A DNA stretch of 32,000 nt from contig BAAFHK010000003.1 of the NCBI GenBank assembly GCA_042852035.1, forward strand, positions 90,001 to 122,000. Direction: 5' to 3'. Positions 1 through 32,000 of this stretch are shown one piece after another. This stretch comes from Candidatus Saccharimonadota bacterium. GTDB taxonomy: Bacteria; Patescibacteriota; Gracilibacteria; BD1-5; UBA2023. The stretch's first letter is position 1. Every line of letters begins with the position of its first letter. A program made the position numbers and the translations under genes. The notes under the pieces were generated by a model. That model made no database searches and had not been told where the DNA came from. It was given only the letters and a program-made list of their open reading frames with translations.

Positions 1-1
1 A

Positions 2-424
2 AAAAAACCAGGAAAAATTCTTGATACCCATGGAAAAATAATCGGAGAACATGAAGGCGCTTTTTCATATACGATTTGACAAAGAAAAGGAATCAAAGTA
101 TGAGGATGACCTGCACTTTTTGTTGTTGGAAAAAATATAAATGAGAATACTATTACCGTAGGAACTGAGGGTGATCTGAATCTCTACTCGAAAAATTGTA
201 TTTTGAGTGGGTGGGTGTGAACAAATATCACAAGTGATAGAATCTGTTCCGCAAAGATACGATATCGCCAAGAAGATCAAGCTTGTACAATACAAAATAC
301 TTGATCCTCTTGAGACTATAAGGAACTTCATTTTAACTCTCCGCAAAGAGCTATAACCCCCGGTCAAATTGCGGTTCTATATGATGATAGCTTAGTGATC
401 GGAAGTGGAATTATTATCGGGTAA
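2..424 (+). CDS. mnmA: tRNA-specific 2-thiouridylase MnmA, C-terminal part (5' end lies outside the window)
   Basis: Frame 2 read with TGA=Gly gives ...GKIIGEHEGAFSYTI[G]QRKGIKV[G]G[G]PALFVVGKN...SPQRAITPGQIAVLYDDSLVIGSGIIIG, ending at TAA 422-424. The YTIGQRKG motif is characteristic of MnmA and its Gly is the TGA at 77-79. There are six in-frame TGA codons. Confidence 0.8.
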
Positions 425-461
425 CTTGCAGATTTTTTTCTTCCAAAATACAATTTACTCT

Positions 462-1151
462 ATGTTTGGTCTACTTATTTCCATCATCACGTTTTATCAA
501 GGAATCTCACCAAAAATTGAAATAATCCGTGCTCCAAAAGCCCCCATAAATGGAGTATCAATTACATTCGATGATGGGCCACACCCCACCAATACTGATG
601 AAATTCTCGATATACTCAAAGAAAAAAAAGTACATGCAACCTTTTTTCTTATTGGACTTCATATTCGGCGGGATGAGAAAGCAATACTTAGAGAAGTACG
701 AGAATGACATACTATTTGAGGACATAGTTTCTCTCACCAAAACTTCTCAAAATTAAATTTGCCCCAAATGGCAAAAGAAGTATTACTTACCCATATCAAA
801 ATTGCCTCTCTTACAGGAAAAATTCCACAGTATTTTCGTTTTCCTTATGGGGTAGATGATGTACGTATACGGTATTTTTATAGTGGTAAAATAATTGGTT
901 GGAATGTGGATGCTTACGATTGGAAGGCAAAAAACCCAAAGCTTCTTGCCGAAAAAATAATCGCACAAACACGTACGGGGAGCATTATACTTCTTCATGA
1001 TATTAAGCCTGATACAGTGAAAGCACTTCCTTATATTATTGATGGAATTCGGGCAAAGCACCTAGAGTTCACCCCTCTTCCATCGTTAATAGCATCCATA
1101 GATGAATCAGATAAGAAGGCTATAATTTACTACTCAAAATATAAAACCTGA
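462..1151 (+). CDS. Polysaccharide deacetylase, NodB homology domain (peptidoglycan/chitooligosaccharide deacetylase family), with a hydrophobic N-terminus
   Basis: Track ORFs 405-707 and 759-1151 are in the same frame and join through TGA at 705 and 717: ...VSITFDDGPHP...LREVRE[G]HTI[G]GHSFSHQNF...FRFPYG...IILLHD. The TFDDGP and H-S-x-x-H NodB motifs are present. ATG 462 precedes MFGLLISIITFYQG. GTG 405 is an alternative start. Confidence 0.85.
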
Positions 1152-1248
1152 TCCCTTCATGATCATAAAAAATCAAGAAAAAATGAAGCTCCTTCAACAG
1201 AACAATTATTAAGCCCTCTTATAATCACAGAACTACAAAGTTGGTAAA

Positions 1249-2343
1249 TTATCTATTTCCATATTGGGAAGGCACTACTTTTTGTTTCGATTTTGATTCG
1301 AGATACCTCGAAAGCCTTCCTCACCATCAATAGTGCCAATATTCACCCATAAGGGGCTGGAACCCAGCTCATGTCATTACATGATAGAGCAACCTTCTTC
1401 ACTCGATTGATTGTAGATCTGTGGGGGATAGATACTTTCAAGAAGATAGGATTTCTTCACCATAGAGTAAAGACTTTGTTTTAGGAGAATTATCGCCAAG
1501 CGCAAGGTTTATTTTCTTTCCATCGAATCAGAGAAGGATAACATCTATAGCTCCTCATGTATGGTGATCACTCTTTCATTCGTCTGCATAAAGCCTGTTC
1601 GCATCAGTCCGTCAAAAGGTTCTTGCATGATTTTCTTTAATAACCCTCTGCTCAGCCATAGATCGATGCCCTGTCTCTACACCAATTGCATAACCAAGGG
1701 GTCTTAGTTTAGAATTTATCTCCTGAAGGGCTCAAGCAATTGATTCACGAACTCGAATATCCCCATTTTTCTCAAACACACTCCCAAGCGCTTGATTTCC
1801 AACATAAAGAGATAATGCTCGACGTACTCATTCTAAAGAATGAAAGTCCAATTCTTTTTGCATGGAATATCCAAGTTTTCACAACTCCTCTGAAATAACC
1901 TCCTTCTGCCTCGCTGGGGAAAGCAACTGAAAAACATCTTTTAATAAATTAAACGTATCAGGCTGGAAAGTATTGATTCCGGTTCATACTCTCAAAATGA
2001 GTCATTCAATTTTTTGAGCCATTACAATCTTCTCAAAGTCAACTTGAGAATATCAGTAATATACATCCTGTGACACAACTCAATACTTCGACAAAAGCAC
2101 AAGTGGTTCATTTGACTCCATCTCTGGATGTCTATAGTAATCTCGATAGCCATCAAATAAAGACTGATTTACATCAATCTTTTTTTTCTTCAAAGCTTCA
2201 ATAGTTTCAGGCGATAAAGTATCGAGGAAGGCTTTTCTTTGGAGTTCCCATTGAAAAATCCTAAGCGCAGGAAATGCCTCACTGTAAACTCATTCGAGTT
2301 GCTCGATAGACCTTCCTATGGTTTCTAAATCAAGACGAGACAT
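1249..2343 (-). CDS. M15-family zinc metallopeptidase, VanX/DdpX-like D-Ala-D-Ala dipeptidase fold, with an N-terminal extension of about 190 aa
   Basis: No track ORF exists here because the frame carries about 20 TGA codons. Hand translation from ATG (2343) to TAA (1249) gives 364 aa with ...[G]KSDHHT[G]GAIDVILL[G]FDGKK...RRLLYHVMT[G]AGFQPLMGEYWHY[G]W[G]. This matches the S-x-H-x-x-G-x-A-x-D and E-x-W-H signatures of LAS/M15 peptidases. The length is divisible by 3. Confidence 0.6.
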
Positions 2344-2388
2344 AAAAAAATTTTGGTATATGCTACCATAATTTTTCTTTGCTTGCAA

Positions 2389-2988
2389 TTAGAAAAGTCG
2401 CATAAGATTGGTTGTTTCTGGTTCTATAACTTTCCTATCAAGAAGTTCAACGAGGCATCTCATAGTAGCCTCTACGTCAACCATAGCGTCGTGGGCTCAT
2501 TCAAACCATTCTCCAAAAAGGTGTTTATATAATTCTGAGAGTTTTGGTGGTTTATAAGAAAATCATCGTCCTTGGAGTTTACAATAATCTGTGGATCATC
2601 TCATGGTACAAATAGTGCTTTGAGGAACGTACTCCCCCCTTCGTCCGAGTCTTTCAAGTTCATAAGAAAGGATTTCTTCATCATACTCAATATTATGTCA
2701 TGAAAGTATTTCTGCACGATTCAGAACTCGAATTATTTCATCAATATGATTTCTTATTGGATTTTTATCAGCAACATCCTTATCGTAAATTCAATGAACC
2801 TGCGACGCTCAAAAAGGTATAGAAACTGGTGGCTTCATAAGAAAATTATGTCTCGCAAGCTCTCTAAATTGACCTTCGATATACTCCCCCTCGAGTGCCG
2901 CAAATTGAATAATGTATGGCTGTTGAGAAAGGTCTCAGCCTCGAGTTGCGAATCCTGTAGTTTCCGTGTCCCAAACAGTTATTTTCAT
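2389..2988 (-). CDS. DEDD-family 3'-5' exonuclease (DnaQ / DNA polymerase III epsilon-like)
   Basis: Hand translation with TGA=Gly gives MKITVWDTETTGF (Exo I), ...AEILS[G]HNIEYDEEIL (Exo II) and ...FE[G]AHDAMVDVEAT (Exo III). It is 199 aa, running from ATG 2988 to TAA 2389. Confidence 0.8.
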
Positions 2989-3102: not shown

Positions 3103-4419
3103 TTAGTAGAATTTCTTGTAATCAAAGCTCTTCATATCAGTGTCTATACGACGAATAATATCAAGGATAACTCAAACAACGATGATTAGACCTGATCCAG
3201 ATATGAGAAAGTCAATTTGACTTGTCCCGGTTGGAAAAATAGCAAATTGGTTGTTAAGCTTAGTAATAACGTAAGGAAATATAGCGATAAGAGCTAGAAA
3301 TCATCCTCCAAAAAGATTTAAATGATCTGAAACTTTCTGAAGAAAGTTTGCCGTCTCCTTTCCTGGGCGAACTCCTGGAATATATCATCCTCTTTTTTGT
3401 ACGCTTTCAGCAACTTCAGTGGTATTAAATGTGATTGAAGTGTAAAAAAATGAGAATCCAAGAACTAAAAGTCAGTAAACTAAAATATATGTCCAGCTTG
3501 GATTTTGGAGAGAGAGATGTGTAACAAGCCAGTCACCTACAGTTTGTGACATTCCTGTACCTCTACGTTGCATAATTTGCCCAATTAATGACGGAAAGGT
3601 AATAAGCGATACGGCGAAAATAATTGGCACCATTCAAGCCTGATTTACTCGGATAGGAAAATATGAACGCTCATCTCGACCAGTACGTGTATAAATAAGA
3701 GGAATTTTTCTATACCCTTCTGTGAATTTGACTATAACATAAACTACAGCAACAGTGAGAATCGCAAGAATAAAAAGCAGTGAATAGCTTTGAGTTGCTA
3801 AATAGCCAAGAATATGCTGAGGAACTCCTGCAAGAACTCAAGCAAAGATTATGATTGATGTACCGTTACCTATTCCAGACTCAGTAATAAGATCACCCAG
3901 CCAGAGAAGAATCATTGTTCCTGCCGTAATGAAAATCATTGCTGGAAGGACTACTCCTGTAAAATTTTTCGTATCAATAATATCAACCCCACTTCCTGTT
4001 CCAATAACACTATTAAGAAGGTAAATCATTCCATAGCTTTGTGCAAGAGCTAATGGAACCGTAAGGTAACGTGTATAATTATTCAGCTTCTTCTGCCCCT
4101 GCTCACCCTCCTTCTTAAGTGACTCAAGTGAGGGGATAATTACAGCAAGGAGTTGAATAATAATTGTAGCATTGATGTATGGGGCAAGTCCCATAAGAAT
4201 TATTGAGAACTGCTCAAGACCACCTCACATAAGTGAACCAAAGAAAGACAGCTGAGAATTCAAACGAAGCTGAGTCGTAAAATTATCAAGAAGTGTTACA
4301 TTAACCCCTGGAACAGGAATTGTTGCCATAATTTTATATACTATGACAATTGCAAGGGTAAAAAGTATTTTTTTTCTTATATGTTCAGTAGCCCAGACTT
4401 TCTTAAGATGAGGTATCAT
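3103..4419 (-). CDS. secY: Preprotein translocase subunit SecY
   Basis: Track ORFs 3838-4194 and 4225-4470 are in the same frame and continue through several TGA codons to TAA 3103. The N-terminus is MIPHLKKVWATEHIRKKILFTLAIV...ATIPVPGVN and the C-terminus is ...ISGSGLIIVV[G]VILDIIRRIDTDM. It is 438 aa and sits in the conserved position after rplO. Confidence 0.92.
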
Positions 4420-4442
4420 AGGATATATATTAAATCTCGCGT

Positions 4443-4470
4443 AGTATAGAGAAAAAATAAAAAAACGCAA
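4443..4470 (-). promoter_or_regulatory. Candidate sigma-70-type promoter for secY (TTGCGT-16 nt-TATACT on the minus strand)
   Basis: The minus strand reads ...cTTGCGTttttttattttttctcTATACTacgcgag..., about 25 nt upstream of the secY ATG and downstream of the rplO terminator. Confidence 0.3.
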
Positions 4471-4548: not shown

Positions 4549-4998
4549 TTATACATTTGCTGTACCACCTGCCTTTTCGATTGCTGACTTTGCTGAAGAT
4601 GAGTAAGCATCAGCAGTTACCTCAATCTTTGCAGTAAGAGAACCAGCCCCAAGAACCTTAAGAAGCATTCCCTTTTTTCGAATAATTCTTTTTTCAAAAA
4701 GTACTGCGTAATCGATTGTTGTAGCACCTGAATCAGCTAACTTCTGTAGATCAGAGAGATTAACTGTTACATACTCCTTTGGAGCATATGCAGTAAAACC
4801 ACGCTTCTTTGGAGTACGTCTAAAGAGTGGGGTCTGTCCTCCTTCGAAGGTTGCATAACGCTTACGGCCTGTACGAGAGTTTTGACCATTCATACCACGA
4901 CCAGAGGTACCACCGATTCCTGAGCTCACTCAACGAGCAACTCGAGTTTTTCGAGTTTGAGAACCTGGTGTTGGTTTTATACTTGAGAGATTTGTCAT
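4549..4998 (-). CDS. rplO: 50S ribosomal protein L15
   Basis: Track ORF 4549-4929 extends upstream through one TGA: MTNLSSIKPTPGSQTRKTRVAR[G]VSSGIGGTSGRGMNGQNSR... This is the typical L15 N-terminus and the gene is in its conserved position. Confidence 0.92.
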
Positions 4999-5016
4999 AA
5001 AGAGAGATTTAGAGGA

Positions 5017-5745
5017 TTATTCTGCTTTTTTCTTAGCTGGAGCTTTTTTTACTGATTTTTCTGACTTTGCTTCAGTTTCAGTCTTTTCTGCACTATTCTT
5101 TTTAGAGGCAAATGAAACATTCATACTTAATGGCTTTAGTGCCTTGAGTGCCTTGAGAGCTACACGTGCATTGGTAATCATATTTGGAGCTCAATGTTGC
5201 TTTGCGATTACATCTTTAATACCAGAAACTGCAAATATTTTACGAACAGCGCCTCATGCAATTATACCAGTACCAGGATGAGCTGGATGAATATAGAGTG
5301 CTGAAGACTTAAAATTCACTGCAACATCGTGTGGGATAGTACCATTAATAATAGGGAAGGTAATAAGATTCTTCTTAGCATCTCGTATTGCCTTTTCTAC
5401 AGCCGATTGAACTTCACCTGCCTTTCCAGTTCCAAGTCCTATACGACCCTTTCCATCACCAACAACAACCGAAGCACGAAATCGAATTTGTCGACCTCAG
5501 GCTGTTACACGAGTAACGCGATCAACCGAGAGCATTTCCTCTTGAAATTCCTTCTCTTCTTCTCTCATACCATCACGACGAGGTCCTCGTTTGTCGCCTC
5601 GAGGTGGACGTCCACCCTCACGACCACGACCATTATTTCGTGCACTGTTATTACCAGTAGCTCCTGCTTGAGCTGGATTATCTTGGCTTGATCCTTCTAC
5701 TGAAGTAGAAGTCTCTTCGATTTGAGTGTTCTCTGTTTCTGACAT
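5017..5745 (-). CDS. rpsE: 30S ribosomal protein S5, with an Arg/Gly-rich N-terminal extension and a Lys/Ala/Glu-rich C-terminal extension
   Basis: Track ORF 5497-5763 continues through three TGA codons: ...LSVDRVTRVTA[G]GRQIRFRASVVVGDGKGRIGLGTGKA...HPGTGIIA[G]GAVRKIF...AKQH[G]APN...KKAPAKKKAE, ending at TAA 5017. All three TGA codons fall on Gly positions conserved in S5 (GGR, AGG, YGS). I chose the start at MSETEN (5745). ATG 5763 is an alternative start. Confidence 0.9.
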
Positions 5746-5765
5746 AGAAAAAATTATAAACAAAA

Positions 5766-6107
5766 TTAGAATTGAAGTCCTCCTTCACGAGCCCCTTCGG
5801 CAAGAGCCTTAACTCTTCCATGATAAAGGTATCCTCCGCGATCAAAAACGCAGGTCTTAACCCCCTTTTCTATAAGAGCTTTTGCAATAGATTCACCTAC
5901 TTCTTTTGCTCGTTCACTTTTAGTTCCTGACTTTACATTCATGTCATGCGCTGAAAGAAGAGTCTTTCCTGACTCATCGTCAATAGCTTGAACAGAGATA
6001 TGTGTATTACTTCGGAATACTGAGAGACGAGGCTTTTCTGCAGTTCCAATGATTCGTGCACGAACACGGTTTGCACGATTGAGTCTATTTTGTACTTTCT
6101 TAAGCAT
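5766..6107 (-). CDS. rplR: 50S ribosomal protein L18
   Basis: The intact 113-aa ORF reads ...[29 protein letters not shown]...[25 protein letters not shown], a typical L18 sequence in its conserved position. Confidence 0.93.
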
Positions 6108-6137
6108 AAGAGAAATGTAAAAGGAGTTTTTAGATTA

Positions 6138-6689
6138 TTATTTACCTGCGGTCTTACCAGCCTTTCTTCGTACATATTCACCAACATATCTGATACCCTT
6201 ACCCTTATATGGCTCAGGCTTCTTGAGGGATCTTACATAAGCTGCAAAATAACCAAGAAGTTGTTTATCATGAGACTTGATATGAATTTTATTTTTATCA
6301 TCTTTATCTGGCTCTATTGCAATACCTTCTGGTGCATCAACGTTTACTTTATGGGAAAATCCGAGTGCAAGTTCAAGTTTTCTTGGTCCTTTAACATCAA
6401 ATTTATACCCAACTCACTGTATTTCAAGTGACTTAGAATACCCTTCTGAAACACCTACTGCCATATTTTGAAGCATAGCACGAGTGAGACCCCAGTAGGC
6501 TCGCTGTTGTTTATCTTCAGCGTTATCTACTGTAACAATAAGAACATCTTCTTCTTGCTTTACCTGAACTCCAGGAAGGATATTAAAACTTAATGCGCCC
6601 TTTGAGCCCTTAAGGTTAACATGACTAGCCGTAATTTCTGCAGTAACACCGCTTGGGAGTTTTACAGGTTGTTTACCAATTCGAGACAT
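6138..6689 (-). CDS. rplF: 50S ribosomal protein L6
   Basis: Track ORF 6414-6689 (MSRIGKQPVKLPSGV...) continues through one TGA: ...SLEIQ[G]VGYKFDVKG...KPEPYKGKGIRYVGEYVRRKAGKTAGK, ending at TAA 6138. Confidence 0.92.
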
Positions 6690-6733
6690 AAAATAAAATT
6701 AATAATTGTAATCAAAAGTGGAATATCAGAATA

Positions 6734-7120
6734 CTAGAATACTTCACAAAGAAGCTCTCCACCAACTCCGAGAGTATGTGCTTCATACCCAGTTACGATT
6801 CCCTTTGGAGTAGAGAGAATAAAAATTCCGACTCCATTTCTTGATTTCTTAATATCACCAGTTTTTACGTAGATTCTCTGTCCAGGTCGAGAGATGCGAC
6901 GGAAAGATGGAACATACTTCGTTTTGCGAACATCTTGGAGAGTGATAATAAAATTTCTTTTATCTTCGGAAACAGCGTATTCTACAATATAGCCATTCTT
7001 CTTTAGAATACGAAGAATTTCTGCTTTAATCTTTGAATATGGAGCCTCTATCGTCGCAAGACGAGAAAGATAACCGTTTCTAATACGAGTGAGAAGATCT
7101 GCTATTGGATCGTGAGTCAT
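6734..7120 (-). CDS. rpsH: 30S ribosomal protein S8
   Basis: The intact 128-aa ORF reads MTHDPIADLLTRIRNG...GVGGELLCEVF, a typical S8 sequence. Confidence 0.95.
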   Translation of the reverse strand: MTHDPIADLLTRIRNGYLSRLATIEAPYSKIKAEILRILKKNGYIVEYAVSEDKRNFIITLQDVRKTKYVPSFRRISRPGQRIYVKTGDIKKSRNGVGIFILSTPKGIVTGYEAHTLGVGGELLCEVF

Positions 7121-7175
7121 ATAATGATTTTATAGATTATATAGTTGAGAGAATCGAGTAAACACTCGCTAAAAA

Positions 7176-7400
7176 TTACCAGCTTGATTTTCTTACGCCC
7201 ATAAGCTCACCAGCGTTTGCTTTTTCACGAATACAGATACGACAAAGATCAAACTTTCCCATGTAACCGTATGAACGGCCACAATGTGAACAACGATGGT
7301 AAAGTCGTGTAGAAAACTTTGGTTTCTTTCCGTTTGCGTGAGCACGAGCAGCTTTTGCTTGTGCGCGAGAACATTTTACGACGATTGCAGTACGAGCCAT
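7176..7400 (-). CDS. rpsN: 30S ribosomal protein S14, zinc-binding (type Z-like)
   Basis: The 74-aa ORF carries C-x2-C...C-x2-C ([20 protein letters not shown]) and ends in RKSSW. It lies in the conserved position between rplE and rpsH. Confidence 0.9.
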
Positions 7401-7427
7401 AAAGGATAAATGAAGAATTACGAGAAA

Positions 7428-7973
7428 TTACTTAGTGAATGGGAATCCAAGCTTATCAAGGAGAGCCCGAGAATGAGCAGCGCTTTCAGTTTTAAATTTT
7501 ACAGTTACTTGGAGTCAATGTGGCTTTACCACATCAAGTTGTGGAACTTCTGGGAAGATAGTATGCTCTTTAATACCAAAATTAAAGTTTCCTGCCTTAT
7601 CAAACCCGCGTCCAGATACTCAACGAAAATCACGTACGCGAGGAAGAACGATAGCAATAAGTTTTTCAAGAAAAGCATACATTCTTTCTCAACGGAGAGT
7701 TACCATCATACCAACTGGCATTCCCTTTCGGAGTTTAAAATTTGAGATAGCAAGACGAGAATGATTGATGCGAGGAAGCTGTCCAGCAATAAGTGCAAGA
7801 TCACTTTTAAGACTTGAGAAATCCTTGTTCCCAGCAGCAACATAGCTTCCTATACCCATATTGAGAACAATCTTCTCAATGCGTGGGATTTGCATTGGGT
7901 TTTCTATTCCGAGCTCCTTTGCGAGTTCTGGAAGAATTTTTTGAGTGTAGTTTTCTTTAAATGACTTTGACAT
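7428..7973 (-). CDS. rplE: 50S ribosomal protein L5
   Basis: Track ORF 7689-7973 continues through three TGA codons: ...GMPVGMMVTLR[G]ERMYAFLEKLIAIVLPRVRDFR[G]VSGRGFDKAGNFNFGIKEH...KPH[G]LQVTVKF..., ending at TAA 7428. Confidence 0.92.
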
Positions 7974-8018
7974 ATATAATTGGACGAACCGTTAGAAGTA
8001 AAAGGGTTCTTAGTAGGA

Positions 8019-8321
8019 TTAAAGAGTGGTACCTGACTTTTTTGCAACTCGAACCTTTTTCCCATCTTTAGTGAGATAACCGATACGGGTTGGCTTTCCA
8101 TCTTTTGGATCAACCAGCATAACGTTTGATGCGTCAATAGGTTTTTCGAAAGTAACTTTTTGTCATGGAGTAGTACCTTGTCGTTTCATATGACGAGTAA
8201 CAAGATTTACTCCCTCAATAAGGACTTTATTATCATCAGTATATACACGAGTGACCGTACCTGTCTTTCATTTATCTTTTCAGGCGATTACGATAACTTT
8301 ATCTTTAGTGTGAATTTTCAT
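8019..8321 (-). CDS. rplX: 50S ribosomal protein L24
   Basis: This gene is absent from the ORF track because it contains three TGA codons. Hand translation gives [13 protein letters not shown][G]KDK[G]KTGTVTRVY...RQGTTP[G][29 protein letters not shown]... The KOW motif G-K-D-K-G-K uses TGA for both glycines. Confidence 0.9.
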
Positions 8322-8367
8322 AAACAGAGAGTTAAAAGTTTTTTATATTCAAATTTCGAATGGGATA

Positions 8368-8736
8368 CTAGACAACTTCAGGAGCAAGAGAGATAATCTT
8401 TTGGTACCCGCGAGCCTTGAGCTCTCGGAATACTGGCCCAAATATACGAGTCCCCTTTGGTTCGAGCTTATCATCAATAATAACACAAGCGTTATCATCT
8501 GAGCGTACGTAAGAACCATCATCACGACGAATTTCTTTTGCTGTACGAACAATTACCGCTTTACAGACCGCCTTCTTCTTAATGTTTCCATTTGGAAGAG
8601 CCTTCTTTACTGAAACAACGATAATGTCACCAACGCTTGCATAACGGCGCTTTGATCCTTTCAAAACTTTAATACAGAGAACTTCTTTTGCTCCAGTATT
8701 ATCTACGACGACGAGTCTTGATTCTGTTTGTATCAT
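8368..8736 (-). CDS. rplN: 50S ribosomal protein L14
   Basis: The intact 122-aa ORF reads [28 protein letters not shown]...[23 protein letters not shown]. Confidence 0.95.
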
Positions 8737-8774
8737 AATGAAAATTTTAATTGTGAATTGGAGGAGGAGAAAAA

Positions 8775-9023
8775 TTATTCAGCAGTTCCACTCTTAATAG
8801 AATCTTCTACAAGAGTCCATCTCTTAAGACGAGAAAGTGGACGAGTCTCAGAAATAGTGACAGTGTCTCCAACTTTTGCGACACCATTTTCATCGTGTGC
8901 ATAAAATTTTCATGAAGACTTATATCTCTTCTGATATTTTGGGTGCGTTTTGTACGTATCGACGGTAACAACGATAGTCTTCTGCATTTTTGTACTGGTA
9001 ACGACACCGGTCTTAGTACGCAT
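8775..9023 (-). CDS. rpsQ: 30S ribosomal protein S17
   Basis: Hand translation gives [37 protein letters not shown][G][35 protein letters not shown]... Track ORF 8807-9007 is in a different, spurious frame. Confidence 0.9.
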
Positions 9024-9041
9024 AGGGGAATTTTTTAGGAA

Positions 9042-9251
9042 TTAGACAGAAAGTGAATTAAGAGCTGTGGAGAGTTGAGCAACAGTGCGTCTTGCCTTAC
9101 GAATAAGGTGAGGCTGTTTAAGTTCTCCAAGAGAGTGTTTCATTGAAAGAGTAAAAAGCTCTTTTTGAGTCGAACGAATTTCATTCATGAGTTCAGTTCT
9201 ATCAAGAGACTTTATGTCTTTCTTCTCTGTTGATTTTTTCGCTTTAGCCAT
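9042..9251 (-). CDS. rpmC: 50S ribosomal protein L29
   Basis: The intact 69-aa helical ORF (...LDRTELMNEIRSTQKELFTLSMKHSLGELKQPHLIRKARRTVAQL) lies in the conserved position between rplP and rpsQ. Confidence 0.9.
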   Translation of the reverse strand: MAKAKKSTEKKDIKSLDRTELMNEIRSTQKELFTLSMKHSLGELKQPHLIRKARRTVAQLSTALNSLSV

Positions 9252-9277
9252 AAAAGTTTTAAATTAATAATGGAGGA

Positions 9278-9694: not shown

Positions 9695-9739
9695 GAGATA
9701 GAACGTTAGGAGTATAAATAATTTTTTGAAAATGCAAGT

Positions 9740-10378: not shown

Positions 10379-10396
10379 AGGGTGATAGAAGAAGAA

Positions 10397-10723: not shown

Positions 10724-10771
10724 AAAAGTTGAATTAATATTTGAGATAACAGGTATTCAATGATTCGTCTA

Positions 10772-13607: not shown

Positions 13608-13626
13608 AAATATTAAAAGTAGCGGG

Positions 13627-21054: not shown

Positions 21055-21120
21055 ATTATTTACAGTTAATAATAAATGCTTCGTATGTACGGTTTTTTCA
21101 CCATGATTTGAAGTGACGGC

Positions 21121-21148: not shown

Positions 21149-21151
21149 TCA

Positions 21152-22327: not shown

Positions 22328-22388
22328 AGTCTTGATACTACGAAAAAATAAGTAAAATGGAAGAGCTTTATCTATTATGAGCCATTCT

Positions 22389-22694: not shown

Positions 22695-22703
22695 ATCTAA
22701 AGT

Positions 22704-22736
22704 TCTTACTTGACTCTTACCGGAATGTGATAGAGT
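22704..22736 (+). promoter_or_regulatory. Box A: direct-repeat operator plus -10 (TCTTAC-N5-TCTTAC-N10-TAGAGT) upstream of the adaptor/ABC operon
   Basis: The site reads TCTTACttgacTCTTACcggaatgtgaTAGAGT and ends 22 nt before ATG 22759. Three other sites share the same architecture (26886, 27392, 28182). Confidence 0.55.
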
Positions 22737-22758
22737 AGAACCATCATAAAAAAACACT

Positions 22759-24975
22759 ATGCGTAAATCACGTTGGGCTATCGCATGAGCGATATTGCTC
22801 ATATGAGGTGGGGGATACTGGTACTATGCTTCGAAAAAGACAACAACCAACCAGAGTGGAACACAAGTCGCTATAGTCAGTCGTGGAAGTATTTCAACTA
22901 CCGTAAAAACAACTGGAAAAATATCACCCGTACAAACAAGCGTCCTTTCTTTTACACGACAGGGCACTGTAACAAAGATAAATAAAAAAATTGGTGAAAA
23001 TATTAAAGCGGGCGATGTTATTGCTGAGGTAGATGCGACTGATGCTTACATGGACATCAAAAGCGCACAGATATCCCTAGATAATGCCAATAACAACTAC
23101 ACTAAACTTTTTGATAGCGCAACAGAATGAGACAAAACTAAGGCAAAAAATACCCTCGAGGAGAGTCGCAATACTCTTAAACTTCTTGAGGCTGAATATG
23201 AGAATTTTCTAGTGTCACAAAAGAATGCAATTATTGAAAATGAACTACAAATTTCCCTCCTCGATGAAAAAATGAAGCTGGCTGAAAGCGATTTGGAATA
23301 TACAAGAAAAAATCTTGATACCACCAATGATATCTCGAATCTTGAGCGAGATATTGCAAACTCCTATATTTCTATAGAGGAAGTTGCTCGATTTTTTCCG
23401 ACTACATTTTCGAGTATTAAAAACCTTACCTACATCGACAATAAATCGGCTGAACGTTATGGCGATTTCGGAAGTAAAAATAGCTATCAAAAAGTTCAGA
23501 TGGAGAAACTTACTCTAAGTATCTCAGGGAGTCTTGCAAGTTTCGAGAAAAATCTTTCTTTGCTGAGAACGAAAGAAACACATTGACTCGATGAAGTTCT
23601 CGCTCTTCTTACGACGAGTAGAAGTTTACTTCAAGATATGAATACGCTGTCGGCTCAGGCTGTTGAAACCTATGACAATACCCCCACTGGTATACCATTT
23701 TCTGACACCGATATAGATGATGCTCAAAGCGAACTTCGCACCCTCTGATCGAGCATCTCTACAAAATTATCATCCCTTAATTCTACCTATACCACTCTCA
23801 AAAACTATTGATCAGATGAAATAGAATCCCTTTCCAATAAAAACACCATCGCAAGCAAAGAACAATCTCTTCAGAGTGCAAAAAATGAATTAGCAAAAGC
23901 AAAAAGAAGTTTGGAAGCCCTAAAATCCTCTCAAAATACAGATCGTATCTCAAAACAGAATGAAATAACTCGAGCAAGAAATACTGTTACTTCAAATGAG
24001 CTTACTTACAATGAACTAATGAATGGACCTACTTCTGTAGACCAAAAAAGTGCAAGAAACAATATCGCAAGTGCGAATATATCTCTCTCTAAGGCATATC
24101 TCTCACTTAAAGATTATCAAATCGTTGCTCCATTTGATGGGATTGTGAATGATATTCCTTGGAAAATCGGAGACACATCTACAACCAATGAATGAATACT
24201 CATTGAAAACAAAAATGCCTATGAGATATCTCTTCTTCTCGATCAAATTGATATCGTAAAAGTTACAGCATGAATGAATGCAAAAATTACCTTAGATGCA
24301 TTCCCAAGTGAAACATATACAGGAACCATAAGTCGTGTAAGCGCTGTTCCTACTGAAACTTCTGGTGTAGTATCTTATGAAGCAATTGTAGAACTTTCTA
24401 TACCGAGAAATGATGTTTACTCAAAAATGAGCACCACCGTGGAAATAATTCTTACTCAAAAAGATAATATTCCCACTCTTCCATCTTCGGCAATTACAAC
24501 GTCTTGAGGGAAGTCCTATGTAAATAAAGTTACTGATATGGAGTCACTTCGCGGAACCATGATGAATGGCTCACAAAGTGGAAGTGGAAGAATGCGGCCC
24601 GAAGGATTTTCTGGAGTAACGAGATTTGGAAGTGGAAAAACCGTTTCATGAGAAAAAAATGTGTGAGCCCCTGAATCAAAGACTCTCACATGAATGAATA
24701 TATCTTGAAGTGGAAATTTAAGAAATCGTAGTTCCTCACGATCAGATACTATTAATATTGGAACCGTAACAATTCCAACCGAAAAAATCGAGGTAACTCT
24801 CGGAGTAACCAATGGTGAGAAAACAGAAATTCTCTCATGACTTTCTCTCTGAGATGCAGTAGTTCTCCCAACAACCACTTCAACATCTAAAAGTGCCAGT
24901 TCAAGCACCAAAAGTAGTACCTCTACTACTCGTTCACAATGAGGACTTGGCGCCTGAGGACCACCACCATTCTAA
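22759..24975 (+). CDS. HlyD/MacA-family periplasmic adaptor (membrane fusion protein), unusually long at 738 aa
   Basis: Hand translation with about 20 TGA=Gly codons gives MRKSRWAIA[G]AILLI[G]GGGYWYY (membrane anchor), ...VSRGSISTTVKTTGKISPVQTSVLSF...GTVTKINKKIGENIKAGDVIAEVD (lipoyl half), then about 360 aa of helical sequence. It continues ...YQIVAPFDGIVNDI (second lipoyl half), a beta-barrel region, ...EILS[G]LSL[G]DAVVL, and a Ser/Thr/Gly tail ending at TAA 24973-24975. Confidence 0.85.
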
Positions 24976-24981: not shown

Positions 24982-25650
24982 ATGCTCGAACTCAAAAACA
25001 TAACTAAATATTTTGATCTCTGAGATTCAAAGATACAAATACTTAAATGAATCAATCTAACTATCACTGATGGTGAATTCGTTGCAATCATGTGACCATC
25101 TGGAAGCGGGAAATCTACTCTCATGAATATTATCTGACTCCTCGATAAGCCCACTACTGGTACCTATCTTCTTGATGGAAGGAATACGCTCAACCTCTCT
25201 GATAACGAAGAGGCAGAATTTCGCGGAAAAAAAATTGGTTTCATCTTCCAGGGATACAACCTCATTCCCCGGCTTACTGCCCTCGAACAAGTTATGCTTC
25301 CTCTTGATTATCAATGAATAGGGGCAAAAGAAAAAGAACAACTCGCCAAGCATGCTCTCGATCGTATGTGACTTTCAGAAAAATATTACAGCATACCAAC
25401 AAAGCTCTCATGAGGTCAACAACAACGTGTAGCAATAGCTCGAGCTATCGTAACTTCACCTTCTGTTCTTCTCGCTGATGAACCCACAGGCGCTCTCGAC
25501 TCAAAAACTGGAAAAGAAGTTCTCGATATTTTTGAGTCCCTAAATAGGGAAGGTCGAACCGTTATACTTATTACGCATGACCCAACTGTAGGTGCACGAG
25601 CAAAGCGCGTGATTAAGCTTTTCGATGGAAATATAGAAACTGACAATTAA
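24982..25650 (+). CDS. ABC transporter ATP-binding protein, MacB/LolD type
   Basis: The sequence reads [11 protein letters not shown]...GEFVAIM[G][13 protein letters not shown][G]LLD...[10 protein letters not shown]...LS[G][11 protein letters not shown]...[11 protein letters not shown]...ITHD. The Walker A Gly (25093-25095) and the signature-motif Gly (25411-25413) are both encoded by TGA. Confidence 0.92.
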
Positions 25651-25659: not shown

Positions 25660-26877
25660 ATGCAACTTACACGCATCCTCAGCCATGCATTTCGTAATAT
25701 GAGAGCCAATAAGCTCCGAGCTGGACTTTCATCCCTTGGGATTATAATTGGGGTATTTTCTGTCGTAGTACTTCTAGCAGTTGGGCAAGGAGCTACAAAA
25801 AGTATCGTTGATCGCGTCTCTTCGCTCTGAACGAATCTTCTTACAGTAAGACCATGAAGTCAGAATTCTTGAGATGTTCGCAGACAATGATGAGGAAATC
25901 AGAAAGTATTTACCCTAGAACATATTGATGTTATTAAAAATATTGACCATGTATCGTGAGTCTCTCCGATAGTGAACACCTCTAAACAAGTTATCTATGA
26001 AAACGCAAACTCAACTGTTACAATTTATGGTGTAGCACCCCAGTATGAAACAATTAACAATACCCCGGTTACAAACGGGACATTCATTACCGAAAATGCT
26101 TATAATAATCGAGAAAAGGTTGCTGTTATAGGCCCTACCGTAGTTACAAATCTCTTTAGTGGTACAGATCCTATATGAAAAACTATTCGTGTTTGAAATG
26201 TTCTTTTTACTGTGGTAGGAATCACAAAATCGAAAGGAACGAGCGGTTTTAATGACCCAGATAATGCTCTCTATGTTCCTCTTACTACCGCTCAAATCTC
26301 ACTTCTCGGATCAAATTATCTTTCAACCATCAATGTTCAAATCGATAGTGAATCGAATATGGATAGTGCAAAGGAAGCTATCAATACAGCTCTTCTTGGT
26401 GCACTAAAAATTACCGATACCTCAAAGGCAAATTTCACAATATCAAGCCAAGCTGATACTCTTGATACACTCTCAAGCATTACGACAACACTCAAGACAT
26501 TTCTTTGAGGAATAGCCGCTATTTCTCTGATAGTATGAGGAATCTGAGTCATGAATATTCTTTTAGTTACTGTTTCAGAACGGACGAAAGAAATTGGAAT
26601 CAGAAAGGCCATAGGAGCAAAAAATCGAGATATTATTGAGCAATTTCTTGTGGAATCGGTTCTCCTTACCGTTATGGGATGATTTATTGGGATTATTCTT
26701 TCATTTGGAATCGTGAAAATCATCACCCTCGTAACTACAGCAATTACTCCAGTTATTACGAGCTCTCAGATTCTTCTTGCTCTATCATTTTCTATAGGAA
26801 CTGGACTTTTTTTTGGGATTTTTCCAGCATACAAGGCAGCAAAAATGCGACCAATAGATGCACTCAGAAGTGAATAG
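25660..26877 (+). CDS. ABC transporter permease, MacB/FtsX type
   Basis: The sequence reads [36 protein letters not shown]... followed by a large extracytoplasmic domain. It then continues ...TFL[G]GIAAISLIV[G]GI[G][29 protein letters not shown]...[18 protein letters not shown] and ends at TAG 26875-26877. Confidence 0.9.
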
Positions 26878-26939: not shown

Positions 26940-27368
26940 ATGCTTATGAAAAATACAAATTTTTCCCCAATACTTCTCTTCGTTCTCTCATCTATAATTC
27001 TCACTTCTTGTACAGGCACTGGAAGTAATACCATAGGAACAAGCAATACAACCCCTTCAAATACTTCTAGCACATCGAACTCCTCTTCGTCTTCAAGTAC
27101 AAAAAAAACCATAAGCTACCGCACTGATCATGGAAAACACTCAGTAAATGTAACCTTTGATATATCGACAACAATTGACGGAACTATTACTGGAGTAAAA
27201 GCGAATATGAACAGTGGTGATCATGAAAGCGCTGAATATATTGCTCGATTCAATAATGCTGCTACCAAAAAAATTGTTGGCCAAAAAATTTCTTCACTCT
27301 CTCTCTCAAGTGTTGGTGGAGCAAGTGATACAACAGATGCATTCCTTAGTGTCATACCTTCAATCTAA
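26940..27368 (+). CDS. Lipoprotein (142 aa) with a Ser/Thr-rich linker and a possible FMN_bind-like C-terminal domain
   Basis: The intact ORF begins MLMKNTNFSPILLFVLSSIILTS-C (signal peptide plus lipobox) and is followed by TGTGSNTIGTSNTTPSNTSSTSNSSSSSS. It ends ...IVGQKISSLSLSSVGGASDTTDAFLSVI, which resembles the SGA[ST] end of FMN-binding domains. Confidence 0.7.
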   Translation: MLMKNTNFSPILLFVLSSIILTSCTGTGSNTIGTSNTTPSNTSSTSNSSSSSSTKKTISYRTDHGKHSVNVTFDISTTIDGTITGVKANMNSGDHESAEYIARFNNAATKKIVGQKISSLSLSSVGGASDTTDAFLSVIPSI

Positions 27369-27424: not shown

Positions 27425-27535
27425 TGTTTATGTAATCTCGATATCTCACTGACGGAAGGAACAATATACTATCGTTCATATCTTCCCGAGAGATCTCTAC
27501 GGATTACGGGATTTTATTACTTAACTTATAATCAT

Positions 27536-28111
27536 ATGAATACAAAAATCCTTGTTCCCGCCGTCCTCGTCACAGCACTTACTGTCGCAGTAGCAGGAAC
27601 ATTCGCCGCCACTGGTTCAAATTCTTCTAATTGAAATAGTTCAGTTCCTGGACAAATTTCTGAAAATGGTTGAGAAAGAATGGGGTGACATAGAGGTGGA
27701 CCAATGGGAGGTCCGATGAACGAACTTTCCGATGCAGAAAAGACATCCCTTGAGTCTATGACCAATACTGAAAAACAAGCCTTTTTTCAAAAAAAACGAA
27801 CTGAAGCTGAAGCAAAGCGAAGCGCTCATGAAGCAGTCATCGATAAGCTTCTTGCAGGTACAGCACTCACGACTGACGAAGAATCACTAAGGCAGGATAT
27901 AATCAAAGAAAGGGCTGAGATGAAAACAAAACGCGCTGAGATGGAAGCAAAGCGTACACAATTTGAGGCAATTCTGGAAAAACAAAAGGCAGGAACTACA
28001 CTTACTCAAGACGAGCAGAAAATTTTAGATGATATGCCAAAAATGCAATGACCTGGTTGAAGAGGCGGTCATATGAAGTGAGAAACGGATACAACCTCAT
28101 CTGCTGAGTAA
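27536..28111 (+). CDS. Secreted helical repeat protein (191 aa), function unknown
   Basis: Track ORF 27704-28051 extends both ways through TGA codons. The N-terminus is MNTKILVPAVLVTALTVAVAGTFA (signal peptide), followed by a Gly-rich stretch with several TGA codons. Two related repeats follow: KRSAHEAVIDKLLAGTALTTDEESLRQDII and KRTQFEAILEKQKAGTTLTQDEQKILDDM. Confidence 0.65.
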
Positions 28112-28148
28112 GTACTCAGTCTCAGGAAAAACGGAAGAAATATATAGG

Positions 28149-28177
28149 AAAATCCCACAATCTTGTGGGATTTTTAT
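28149..28177 (+). terminator. Rho-independent terminator after the secreted repeat protein gene
   Basis: The RNA is AAAAUCCCACA-AUCU-UGUGGGAUUUU followed by UAUUUCUUC. Confidence 0.7.
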
Positions 28178-28386: not shown

Positions 28387-29055
28387 ATGAATACCCTTCT
28401 TATCGAAGATAATATTGCTCTCGCTCAAACCGTCACACGCTATCTTGCAACTCAAAATATAACCTGCACCCTTCGAACCGATGGGAAAGAAGGACTTATG
28501 GAAGCAATGAATAATAACTTCGATGTTATTATTCTTGATATCGAGCTTCCGAATATGGATGGGATAGAAATCTGTCGAAGGCTTCGAAATGAATGAAAAA
28601 ATACTCCAATTATCATGCTTACCTCACGTGGTACGCACGATGATATTGTAAGTGGACTTGATTATGGGGCTGATGACTATCTCTCAAAACCTGCTGATTA
28701 TCGAGAGTTAGTGGCTCGAATTCGGGCACTCAGCAGAAGAAATTTTACTGAAAAAAGCACCGAAATGATTCGTATTGGAAGCCTTGAAATCAATCAAACT
28801 CTTCACCAAGTAAGATGGAATGGTAATGAGGTTGAACTCTCAAAACGTGAATTCGAACTTCTTTTGTACTTTGCACAAAATGGAGATAAGATTATTACAA
28901 AAAATGAGCTGGCAGAGAAAGTATGGGGAATTTATGACGTATGGGAAGATGGAAAAGTTGTAGAAGTTTATATCGGATATCTCCGAAAAAAAATAAATAA
29001 AAATATTATTGAAACTCAAAAATGATTCTGATATCGACTAAACTGTTGAGAATAA
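28387..29055 (+). CDS. OmpR/PhoB-family response regulator (receiver plus winged-helix DNA-binding domain)
   Basis: Track ORFs 28387-28596 and 28615-29025 join through TGA. The sequence reads MNTLLIEDN...DVIILDIELPNMDG...MLTSRG...GADDYLSKP...LSKREFELLLYF...VEVYIGYLRKKI...IETQK[G]F[G]YRLNC[G]E. The C-terminal G-x-G-Y-R-L motif uses TGA twice. Confidence 0.92.
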
Positions 29056-29109
29056 ACCTCTCTTAGGTGCATCCAAAGTTCCCTTCTTTCTAAAATACCC
29101 TCACGAATC

Positions 29110-30297
29110 ATGAAAACGTCATTAATACATACGGAACGAAAACTTATCGCTATATTTCTTGGATGAGCATTTTTATTTCTTCTTTTATTTGAAGGCTTTT
29201 TTCTCGTATCTCGGTTCATCTTTGAAGAAAAAATGTCTCGAACTGGATTCACCAATGAGGTAACTCGAATAGAGAATCATGCTCCGGATTCACCAAGAAA
29301 ATCAAGGGATTTTTGACCAAAGATTGGTATGTCGGTATTTTCAATTGATAGAAGTGGTGCCGTATTTCAAGATCGTTGAATAGAAAATCCACTCGTCGAT
29401 ATCGAAGAAATAACTTGAGAATTTCTCAATGAACTTGAGGTAGGGGTTGTCACAAAAAAAGACGATTTACTCATCTATAAAAGAATTCGCCCAGAAAATC
29501 CCGAACTCTATCAGGTTTTTATAAGAAGATCGGGGTATCCCCTTGAAGATCTTTTGCGAGATATTCTTCGCTTTCTTATTTTAGATATACTGATTATTGT
29601 CCCATTTTATTTTATGGGAAGATACTTTGTACGGAAAACTCTTGAGCCTGTTGCAGAAAATATTGATATAATGTCTCACTTTATTCATGATGCCTGACAT
29701 GAACTTAAAACGCCACTTGCTATCGTTTCATGAAACCTTCAGATTCTTCGGGAAACTAAACATATAGAGAAGTGACTCGTTGAAGAAAGCATTGACACTA
29801 TTCACTCAATGTCAGATTCTCTAGATGGGTTACTGGAACTCTCGAGTACTATGAGTTGAGAAAAAATCGATAAAATTCATCTTCTAGAAGCATTCAATGC
29901 CGAATTTGAAAAAGAAAAAACAAGAATTGAAGAAAAGAAAATAGTCGTAAATATTCATATTGAACCAAAATCAAGTATTGATATGGATCGAAAACATTTC
30001 TCTTTGCTTTTCGGAAACCTTATTAGAAATGCTATCACCTACAATAAAAGTGGAGGAACGATTGATATTAATGAAAAGGATGGAATGATATCAATTACTG
30101 ATACTGGTATCGGAATCGATGAAAAGCATATAAAAAACATTTGGGAAAGATTCTATAGAGTTGAAAGAACTGGTAAGAATCCTGGAACTGGGATAGGTCT
30201 CTCGATAGTAGAAAAAATAATACATCACTATGGTTGGGAAATACGTGTAACATCTAAAGTAAATCAGTGAACTACTTTTAACATAAAAATAAAATAG
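29110..30297 (+). CDS. Sensor histidine kinase (two transmembrane segments, HisKA and HATPase_c domains)
   Basis: Hand translation gives MKTSLIHTERKLIAIFL[G]GAFLFLLLF..., a loop of about 120 aa, and a second transmembrane segment LRFLILDILIIVPFYF. The H-box is FIHDA[G]HELKTPLAIVS[G]N (TGA at 29695-29697), the N-box is LIRNAITYN, and the G-boxes are DTGIGI and GTGIGLSIV. It ends at TAG 30295-30297. Confidence 0.9.
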
Positions 30298-30352
30298 CTT
30301 GCAAATGTTCGAAAAAATATAGTATATAACTATTATCATTACTTCATTCCTT

Positions 30353-30817
30353 ATGCGAAGAATTTCACTTCTTGCTGCTCTTCTTATGGTTATGCTTTCA
30401 AGTTGTGGAAGCTGAACGAAACAAGGCCCTCAGGCAACTCAACCAAGTCCTTATCCAAGTGTTCCCATGAACGAGGTGGTTTGATCTGGATGAGAGAAAT
30501 CATTCATCCCAACACCAGAAGCAGAGGTTATTCCTGCCTTCACAGTCAAATGAACTGAACCATTTTGGTCAGTGGAAATTGAAAAGAACACCGCAACACT
30601 CACTCGTCCTGGAACAGGAAGCACTTCTACAGAGACCTTCAACATTATCTGAAGCGATAAGTGATCGACTATTTCTCTACGCTGAGTAAAATGAGATTTT
30701 TTTCTTACTCTCATAAAATGAAGCTGTAGCGATGGAGCAAGTGATACGAAATACGCATTTAATGCAACCCTCAATGTGTGAGCTGAGGAACTTCATGGAT
30801 GTGCGAATAAAAAATAA
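30353..30817 (+). CDS. Lipoprotein (154 aa), function unknown
   Basis: This gene is absent from the track because it contains about 13 TGA codons. Hand translation gives MRRISLLAALLMVMLSS-C (lipobox), then ...TVK[G]TEPFWSVEIEKNTATLTRPGTG...LIK[G]SCSDGASDTKYAFNATLNV[G]AEELHGCANKK, ending at TAA 30815-30817. Confidence 0.65.
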
Positions 30818-30824
30818 GAATTTT

Positions 30825-32000
30825 TTATATCCTCTCCATTCTTACTACCGTTTCGATATGATGAGTATGGGGAAACATATCTACTGGGGTAATATCTGTG
30901 ATTCTATACCGAGGAAGTCCCTCGGTTTTTTCATCGCGATTTTTTCCTATGAATACTTCAAGATCTCGAGCGAGAGTTGCAGGATTGCACGAGACGTAGA
31001 TAATCTCATTCACTGAAAAACTTAAGAGTGTTGCATATGTCGATGGATGCATACCATCACGAGGAGGATCAAGAATAATTGTATCGGCCTTTCCTCAAGT
31101 TTCTAGAAATTTCTTTGCGAAATCCTCAACTTTTTCGTTCATAAATCGAACATTCTTAATTCCATTGTTTAAAGCATTCTTCATTCCATCATTTGATGCT
31201 GATTCTACAAGCTCCACAGAATAAACCTCTTTAAAGTGCTCAGACAAAAGTAATCCAATAGTTCCAGTTCATGCATACAGATCAAGAAGAACTCACTCCT
31301 TATTGTGGATAAAATCGATGGCTACTTGGTAAAGCTTTTCTGCTCAAAACGTATTAACCTGAAAGAATGACTTTGGTTGAATCTCAAAGTGCATTCCAAA
31401 AAGTTCATCCTCAATAATAGGATCTCCGTAGATGCATATCGGATTTCCCGTAACAATATCTGCCCTTCAAGTATTTTCTAAAAAGTATATAGAACGAATA
31501 TTCTTATATTTTTCGGTCAATTCTTGAACCATAAGCGTAAATAAATCTTGTATTTTCTGACTATTTTCTGGAGGATTCCAGAGTGAATGAATCGAAAAAA
31601 TAATCATTATTTCATCTGTTTTTCTTCCTTTGCGTACAACAAGATGCCGCCAAAATCCTTGTGCAGTTTTAGGATCATATGTAGGAAAATTTGAAGCTCG
31701 TGAGAGTTTATCCACATCCTTAAAAAGAGCATTTGTCTGCTCATCTGCAAGAGCACAATATTCACAATTATCGATTCGATCAAACTGTCACTGAGCATGA
31801 AATCAGAAACGGAAATCATCATGAATTCCTTCTCGAGCGGAAATATACTTTCACCATGAAAACTCAACCTTATTTCGATATCCATATATTTCTGGCGAAG
31901 GAACAATCGGATGAAAGACTGGTTTTATCTGATTTGTCTCGAGATACTTTGATATATGATAAAAGGCCTCCTCAATCTGTCATGCCTTAATTCTAAGTTG
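30825..32000 (-). CDS. 23S rRNA (uracil-C5)-methyltransferase, RlmD/RumA (TrmA) family (N-terminus outside the window)
   Basis: Track ORFs 30825-31052 and 31467-31715 are in the same frame and join through TGA codons up to the window edge. The sequence reads ...GYRNKVEFSW[G]K...F[G]FHAQ[G]QFDRIDNCEYC...FFQVN...LDLYA[G]TGTIGL...IILDPPRDGMH...IIYVSCNPATLARDL...DMFPHTHHIETVV. Confidence 0.85.

Follow-up and report, generated by a model that had tools for sequence, protein, structure and literature searches.

UGA as a glycine codon in a 32-kb window from a Gracilibacteria (BD1-5)-type bacterium

Introduction

When the DNA studied here is translated with the usual bacterial code (table 11), most of its genes look broken. 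The locus raises the question whether UGA stops translation there or is a sense codon, and, if so, for which amino acid. The window, by which we mean the whole stretch that was analysed, is 32,000 bases long (38.5% G+C) and was taken from Candidatus Saccharimonadota bacterium (assembly GCA_042852035.1, contig BAAFHK010000003.1, positions 90,001-122,000, forward strand). The GTDB lineage of the source is Bacteria; Patescibacteriota; Gracilibacteria; BD1-5; UBA2023. All positions below are those of the window.

UGA was predicted to encode glycine in SR1 and BD1-5 in 2012-2013. The resulting code, table 25, is said to have been assigned to Gracilibacteria/BD1-5 by Rinke et al. in 2013, and reportedly to Absconditabacteria/SR1 by Campbell et al. 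in the same year. A preliminary description of the window had proposed this code for all of its genes.

We found that essentially all genes of the window are read through UGA, that UGA stands at glycine positions, and that relatives freely exchange it with GGN. Three independent tests agreed on glycine and excluded tryptophan; they drew on the homologues in standard-code organisms, on raw DNA from relatives and, as controls, on GGN and TGG codons of the window itself. With a probability of about 0.97, we conclude that the DNA belongs to a candidate phyla radiation organism of the Gracilibacteria (BD1-5) type, whose code is table 25, with UGA for glycine, UGG for tryptophan, and only UAA and UAG as stops. 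The window-wide glycine meaning given in the preliminary description was thus upheld.

Open reading frames and in-frame TGA

The lengths of open reading frames (ORFs) of at least 100 amino acids (aa) were compared with and without TGA as a stop, a check proposed with the preliminary description. Under table 11 these ORFs summed to 7,594 aa, and the longest was 290 aa. Freeing TGA, which left only TAA and TAG as stops, brought the total up to 24,295 aa, with 741 aa for the longest ORF. In the controls, freeing TAG gave a sum of 10,102 aa and freeing TAA one of 14,683 aa.

The gene set was curated by homology and signal-peptide evidence, since calling by longest ORF took antisense ORFs. It contained 41 genes with 9,846 codons, so that 92.7% of the window was coding. 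In-frame TGA was counted 172 times, spread over 31 of the 41 genes; the real total is about 170, some N-termini being probably over-extended past the true start codons.

No gene ended in TGA. Thirty-five ended in TAA and six in TAG, the less frequent stop, as had been noted earlier. Neither TAA nor TAG occurred inside the aligned genes, and the reading frame was constant across every TGA, with no frameshift. This agreed with the earlier view that the gene fragments are split by TGA only and lie in the same frame. All eight codons cited in that view are indeed TGA on the strand named for them.

Homology ran 22-199 residues beyond the last TGA in all 17 testable genes. The Pfam match of SecY spanned 1-305 of the 306 profile positions over seven TGAs, and near-complete matches across TGAs were also obtained for L16 (1-131 of 132), Peptidase_M24 (1-207 of 208) and GrpE (9-164 of 165). 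Under table 11, on the other hand, the longest start-to-stop ORF was only 33 aa in rplX, 56 aa in rplP, 37 aa in a VanY/M15-like peptidase gene and 26 aa in the lipoprotein gene at 30353. These four genes had been described as invisible under table 11, which these lengths confirmed. The corresponding ORFs of the ABC ATPase gene (13 aa) and the exonuclease gene (31 aa) were equally short.

Could the TGAs be true stops, in pseudogenes or through sequencing or assembly errors? Such stops would give the broken look of most genes under table 11. They would, however, break essential genes, namely those of 19 ribosomal proteins and SecY, and homology continued in the same frame across every TGA. Counting TGA as glycine also brought back a normal glycine content (7.5% outside the ribosomal genes, versus 5.4% when TGA was not counted). 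In addition, the TGAs were exactly reproduced in three independent assemblies, and were conserved or swapped for GGN in relatives (see below). We consider true stops extremely improbable.

Residues of standard-code homologues at TGA sites

To read the amino acid from homologues, a panel of 80 standard-code loci was used, comprising E. coli and 79 ordinary bacteria (Bacteroidota, Proteobacteria and other phyla). It was found by a scan with L14, taking one genome per GTDB species; the scan also gave one Gracilibacteria metagenome-assembled genome (MAG). SecY and the ribosomal proteins of the window were aligned to the panel after each TGA had been replaced by X, and the panel residue was logged for each window codon. 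The ribosomal genes were named by their match to the annotated S10-spc cluster of E. coli. The genes concerned are as follows.

3103-4470, minus strand: secY, 7 TGA; Pfam SecY
4549-5763, minus strand: rplO (L15, 1 TGA) and rpsE (S5, 3 TGA); E. coli gene matches
5766-7400, minus strand: rplR (L18, no TGA), rplF (L6, 1 TGA), rpsH (S8, no TGA) and rpsN (S14, no TGA); E. coli gene matches
7428-7973, minus strand: rplE (L5), 3 TGA
8019-8321, minus strand: rplX (L24), 3 TGA, two of them in the KOW motif; invisible under table 11
8368-9251, minus strand: rplN (L14, no TGA), rpsQ (S17, 1 TGA) and rpmC (L29, no TGA); E. coli gene matches and Pfam
9278-9694, minus strand: rplP (L16), 2 TGA; Pfam Ribosomal_L16
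9740-10378, minus strand: rpsC (S3), 2 TGA, including codon 2 (10373-10375)
10397-11035, minus strand: rplV (L22, no TGA) and rpsS (S19, 1 TGA, at 11012-11014)
11073-11915, minus strand: rplB (L2), 3 TGA, including 11214-11216
11954-13489, minus strand: rplW (L23, no TGA), rplD (L4, 2 TGA) and rplC (L3, no TGA); E. coli gene matches and Pfam

Over the 29 TGA sites of SecY and the ribosomal proteins, the mean per-site frequency in the panel was 0.72 for Gly, 0.09 for Ala and 0.04 for Ser. The window's own GGT and GGA codons gave 0.75 for Gly and 0.07 for Ala, which is indistinguishable from TGA. Gly was in the majority at 23 of the 29 sites, with at least 90% at 16; Trp was in the majority at none. 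This tabulation of columns had been proposed as a check, and TGA did not fall mostly on Trp or non-conserved columns.

The log-likelihood, calculated as a cross-entropy built from the window's own unambiguous codons, was -36.5 for Gly, followed by Ala (-70.9), Ser (-71.1), Cys (-137) and Trp (-150). TGG sites had Trp at a frequency of 0.57. Among the other sense codons, the top residue matched the standard meaning in all that were aligned at 15 or more sites.

The individual columns were as follows. In SecY, Gly was found in 67 of 71 genomes at position 82, 71 of 71 at position 211, 69 of 71 at position 279 and 44 of 71 at position 362, and positions 333, 390 and 433 were variable or non-Gly columns. 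All four sites of L15 and S5 had Gly in at least 70 of 73 genomes. The single L6 site (position 92) had Gly in 74 of 74, and is also TGA in the relative L002. The three L5 sites had Gly in 47 of 78, 78 of 78 and 58 of 77 genomes, with GGT, GGA and GGT in L002. In L24, the two KOW glycines gave 76 of 76 and 75 of 76 and the third site 32 of 76; all three are GGN in both L002 and a second relative, L006.

The L16 columns had Gly in 74 of 76 and 25 of 76 genomes, and those of S3 in 75 of 75 (codon 2) and 57 of 76. At position 8 of S19 it was found in 71 of 73. Position 234 of L2, in HPHG-X-GEG, had Gly in 70 of 71, whereas position 242 was divided between Ser (36) and Gly (33), and position 2 was an Ala-majority column. 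The two L4 columns had Gly in 31 of 38 and 66 of 70 genomes. Position 38 of S17 lay in a Lys-majority column, and is hence a non-Gly site.

Outside the cluster, homologues were available for the following genes.

2-424, plus strand: mnmA, C-terminal part (5' end cut by the window edge), 6 TGA; Pfam tRNA_Me_trans_M and _C
19803-22516, minus strand: grpE (2 TGA), a protein of unknown function (3 TGA) and Xaa-Pro aminopeptidase, PepP (8 TGA); Pfam GrpE, AMP_N and Peptidase_M24
24982-25650, plus strand: ABC ATPase (MacB/LolD type), 7 TGA, including Walker A (25093-25095) and signature (25411-25413)
25660-26877, plus strand: MacB_PCD/FtsX permease, 12 TGA; Pfam
28387-30297, plus strand: OmpR-type response regulator (4 TGA) and histidine kinase (9 TGA, including 29695-29697); Pfam

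The ABC ATPase and the permease, in the right half of the window, were aligned with 120 homologues of the fused MacB type (25-51% identity). These homologues came from a search of a large protein database with a concatenated four-protein query, whose matches were mostly fused MacB; this query returned nothing for PepP or RlmD. Gly was the majority at 16 of the 19 TGA sites and Trp at none. All seven ATPase sites were Gly-majority, with Gly in 120 of 120 at both the Walker A and the signature codon, and the PDB alignments concurred. In the permease, nine of the 12 sites were Gly-majority.

Solved structures were aligned for three more proteins. The MnmA codon 77-79 (YTI-X-QRKG) corresponds to Gly in all three MnmA structures, as do the PepP codons in KP-X, FL-X-LDVHD and EP-X-M in three of three structures each. 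The G-box codon of the kinase corresponds to Gly in four of four solved kinases, and the H-box codon 29695-29697 to Ser in all four.

The preliminary description had placed TGA at invariant glycines. This was right for the cited sites in S3, L2, S19, the KOW motif of L24, both ABC motifs and MnmA. It was overstated for two others: the kinase H-box, and SecY 3172-3174 (VV-G-V), a variable column with Ser in 29, Val in 21 and Gly in 13 panel genomes.

These columns bear on site-specific recoding, by selenocysteine or programmed read-through, with UGA a stop elsewhere. In its favour, many bacteria use UGA for selenocysteine. The roughly 172 sites, found in 31 of the 41 genes, are nevertheless too many for site-specific recoding, none of the panel TGA sites was a Cys column (the Cys frequency there being near zero), and none of the 17 testable genes ended at TGA. 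An Rfam search of the window gave no match of any kind, SECIS (selenocysteine insertion sequence) or other. Site-specific recoding is accordingly given next to no weight.

Codons of relatives and independent assemblies

Assemblies of other sequencing runs also contained short contigs with the exact L14 protein. Three of these contigs were 99.5-99.9% identical to the window, and two were 83-84% identical. The three independent assemblies, which differ from the window at other bases, carried the same TGA in 19 of 19 observations. This disposed of the assembly artefact that the preliminary description had named as a possible refutation. In the 83% relative, each window TGA was opposite GGA, GGT or TGA, and one window GGT was opposite TGA.

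By their DNA identity, the three near-identical Logan contigs (L003, L004 and L005, from runs DRR350542, SRR14932559 and SRR14932523) are of the same species as the window. The species is thus present in at least three unrelated public runs, and a congener (83-84%) occurs in SRR29974356 and ERR15663892.

Codons were paired without annotation, from the raw DNA of six related contigs. These included the GTDB MAG, three contigs reached by way of SecY homologues, and one contig from a metagenome. The 187 window TGA codons paired with GGN in 131 cases, TGA in 35, other codons in 21 and TGG in none. In the reverse direction, 51 of the relatives' 72 TGA codons were opposite GGN in the window. Conservation in relative L007 was 88% for TGA sites, counted as Gly-class codons, compared with 93% for GGN and 78% for all codons. 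Window TGG paired with TGG in 23 of 26 cases; together with the panel columns, this supported the earlier statement that Trp remains TGG.

A metagenome scan with the aminopeptidase gave one 2-kb contig of 46% identity, also with in-frame TGA, a yield too small for statistics. In public pipelines the relatives' genes are already called in full, and table 11 translations of the fetched loci do not give those proteins.

Reading UGA as tryptophan (table 4), through a tRNA-Trp(UCA), is known from Mycoplasmatales and several insect endosymbionts. The ORFs it opens are identical to those of table 25, and ORF length therefore cannot separate Trp from Gly. One of the relatives' 72 TGA codons was opposite a window TGG, as this would allow. 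Against it, none of the 48 TGA sites tested (29 in the panel and 19 in MacB) was Trp-majority, the log-likelihood favoured Gly strongly over Trp, and TGG was never opposite a window TGA, while TGG itself fell on Trp columns. The choice of glycine over tryptophan in the preliminary description was thus well founded, and there is hardly any chance that UGA is Trp here.

Arginine codons

A wider change of code, in which CGA and CGG also mean Trp, has been reported for Absconditabacteria, with CGG as Trp possibly in some Gracilibacteria (Shulgina and Eddy 2021, PMC8629427). CGG is fairly rare in the window (26 per 10,000 codons), which would suit such a change. There are, on the other hand, abundant CGA codons (139 per 10,000), and these fell on Arg columns (0.50 over 39 sites). 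The CGG columns were Arg/Lys or variable and never Trp, although only four sites were aligned and the CGG part is not firm. In L007, the codons opposite window CGG were CGT (three), AGG, AAG and TAC, and those opposite window CGA were mostly CGN or AGA. This wider change is very improbable for the window. The lineage retains CGA as Arg and, on thin evidence, CGG as well.

Points against the glycine reading

Several observations weigh against table 25 as the code of the window. About one-fifth of the TGA sites stand at non-Gly columns of standard-code homologues, for example S17 position 38 (Lys), SecY position 390 (Ile), L2 position 2 (Ala) and the kinase H-box (Ser). Among the window's own GGN codons, 188 of 239 were Gly-majority. 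We interpreted the non-Gly TGA columns as ordinary divergence, because the GGN codons showed the same rate. For lineage-specific genes that have no homologues (the lipoprotein at 30353 and the ORF at 27536), the glycine meaning is extrapolated.

The name of the lineage is also no guarantee of table 25, as some genomes that NCBI names Gracilibacteria use table 11 (bioRxiv 10.64898/2026.05.24.727570); for this reason the name alone was not taken as evidence. Finally, ARAGORN detected no tRNA genes, either in the window or in the ten related loci searched (L002-L007 and L087-L090).

Lineage and proposed decoding

The nearest relatives of the window are MAGs named Candidatus Gracilibacteria, which have the same gene order and in-frame TGA themselves. 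The best GTDB representative, a MAG of this name, had an L14 that was 94% identical. SecY matches ranged from 62% to 93% identity, the top ones being named Candidatus Gracilibacteria; kinship was judged by identity and name. The closest DNA from another species was 83% identical, and no fetched genome was identical to this species-level lineage.

Published work on the lineage suggests how UGA may be decoded. A dedicated tRNA-Gly with anticodon UCA, for which the glycine identity elements would be G1:C72, C2:G71, G3:C70 and U73, would read UGA, and loss of release factor 2 (RF2, encoded by prfB) would leave nothing to compete with it at UGA. UGA is reported to be decoded by an additional tRNA-Gly(UCA) and not by wobble (PMC3812714, PMC8629427), and prfB was undetected in all BD1-5 genomes (PMC6851277). 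Proteomics of a BD1-5 enrichment found 97 peptides unique to the Gly translation of UGA and three unique to the Trp translation (PMC4032931). The GTDB class JAEDAM01 (orders BD1-5 and Absconditabacterales), with hundreds of genomes, is treated as table 25 (bioRxiv 10.64898/2026.05.24.727570). The reassignment is already known and routinely predicted, and is not new, as the preliminary description had acknowledged (PMC4032931, PMC8629427, PMC6851277).

The code of the window resembles that of Gracilibacteria/BD1-5 (GTDB JAEDAM01, order BD1-5; Hanke et al. 2014, PMC4032931; Sieber et al. 2019, PMC6851277) in its frequent UGA for Gly, UGG for Trp, and UAA and UAG stops. A low-to-moderate G+C content is also common to both, and there is no difference in kind. 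Among Candidatus Gracilibacteria MAGs, SecY and L14 are 93-94% identical to those of the window, with the same gene order.

Absconditabacteria/SR1, the sister clade, which also use table 25, share UGA as Gly with the window, and the literature describes the extra tRNA-Gly(UCA) there (Kantor et al. 2013, PMC3812714). They differ in CGA, which is reported at less than 37 per 10,000 codons in Absconditabacteria, compared with the much higher frequency in the window, where CGA aligns with Arg. The change of CGA and CGG to Trp proposed for them (PMC8629427) gave no such signal in the window, the CGG sample being small.

Table 4 organisms (Mycoplasmatales, Hodgkinia, Zinderia and others) have UGA as a sense codon like the window, with loss of RF2 as the presumed enabling step in both. 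There, however, UGA means Trp and not Gly, and according to the literature it is read by a changed tRNA-Trp instead of an additional tRNA-Gly.

Uneven use of TGA among glycine codons

TGA made up 9% of the glycine codons (22 of 243) in the ribosomal genes, a set of 19 genes at 4549-13489, and 28% (150 of 538) in the other genes (Fisher p ~8e-10). The lower ribosomal share was also seen in the relatives L007, L089 and L090, and not in L088; that is, in three of four. This suggests that UGA is disfavoured, and selected against, as a glycine codon in highly expressed genes. It is possible, though we hold it only tentatively from codon counts, that UGA is not a fully equivalent glycine codon; a slower or less accurate decoding by tRNA-Gly(UCA) would fit. 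This quantitative bias between ribosomal and other genes is the only mildly new point of the analysis.

The share also varied among single genes. TGA supplies 10 of the 17 glycine codons in the lipoprotein gene at 30353-30817 (plus strand) and 17 of 36 in the VanY/M15-like peptidase gene at 1249-2388 (minus strand). In the neighbouring lipoprotein gene at 26940-27368, TGA is used at none of the 10 glycine codons.

Other genes and gene order

The remaining annotated genes of the window are as follows.

405-1247, plus strand: polysaccharide deacetylase, 3 TGA; Pfam Polysacc_deac_1 (E 1e-27)
1249-2388, minus strand: VanY/M15-like peptidase, 17 TGA; Pfam VanY (E 7e-6); invisible under table 11
2389-2988, minus strand: RNase T/DnaQ-type exonuclease, 7 TGA; Pfam RNase_T, profile 2-162 of 164
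13942-16229, plus strand: rsmA/ksgA (2 TGA) and a PLP (pyridoxal phosphate)-dependent Orn/DAP/Arg-type decarboxylase (4 TGA); Pfam RrnaAD, Orn_Arg_deC_N and Orn_DAP_Arg_deC
16262-19712, minus strand: DUF5715 protein (9 TGA), RsmB/F-type methyltransferase (5 TGA) and a protein of unknown function (3 TGA); Pfam
22759-24975, plus strand: HlyD-type membrane-fusion protein, 17 TGA; Pfam HlyD_3
27536-28111, plus strand: secreted protein of unknown function, 6 TGA; N-terminal signal-like segment, no Pfam match
30353-30817, plus strand: lipoprotein, 10 TGA in 154 codons; invisible under table 11
30825-32000, minus strand: RlmD/TrmA-type uracil-5 methyltransferase (5' end cut by the window edge), 9 TGA; Pfam tRNA_U5-meth_tr, 170-356 of 357

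The exonuclease was 70% identical to its counterpart in L007 over the full length, and the RsmB/F-type methyltransferase gene 61%.

Freeing TGA also produced long spurious antisense ORFs, up to 472 aa, opposite real genes. They were found at 9845-11263 (plus strand), 12352-13616 (plus strand) and 27526-28158 (minus strand). Run with table 25 or 4, a gene caller that goes by length takes the wrong strand here, and homology is therefore needed to decide between the strands. The antisense ORF at 27526-28158 was replaced by 27536-28111 on the plus strand, which has the signal-like N-terminus. The product of the latter is 191 aa long, with a coiled middle rich in Glu and Lys and Gly-rich ends, and its gene lies just upstream of the two-component system. 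Four further ORFs without a Pfam match, at 13787-13990 (minus strand), 13734-14042, 22377-22694 and 22538-22738 (all plus strand), were discarded as probably non-coding.

In the ribosomal cluster, TGA is the second codon, right after the start, in both rpsC (10373-10375) and rplB (11910-11912). At its N-terminus, S5 (5017-5763, minus strand) is extended by about 70 low-complexity residues in which Gly, Arg, Asn and Glu abound, and it has a C-terminal tail rich in Lys and Ala. Both are missing from E. coli S5, and the alignment was limited to residues 72-214.

The gene rpmD (L30) was not present between rpsE and rplO (4998-5017), nor was rpsJ (S10) upstream of rplC (13490-13940). The latter stretch of 450 bases contained no credible ORF and no Rfam match. 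The secY gene is followed by the exonuclease gene, rather than by adk, map or infA; in the relative L090, infA-rpsM-rpsK-rpsD-rpoA-rplQ lie further downstream.

Significance

All gene calls in the window depend on table 25. Under table 11, two ribosomal genes and those of the ABC ATPase, the exonuclease, the peptidase and the lipoprotein are lost, and most others are fragmented. The window adds one more BD1-5-type lineage to the known reassignment, and raises no new question about it. If the bias against UGA in ribosomal genes has the meaning suggested above, UGA density could tune expression, or could single out genes that were acquired recently or are only weakly expressed, for example the lipoprotein gene at 30353.

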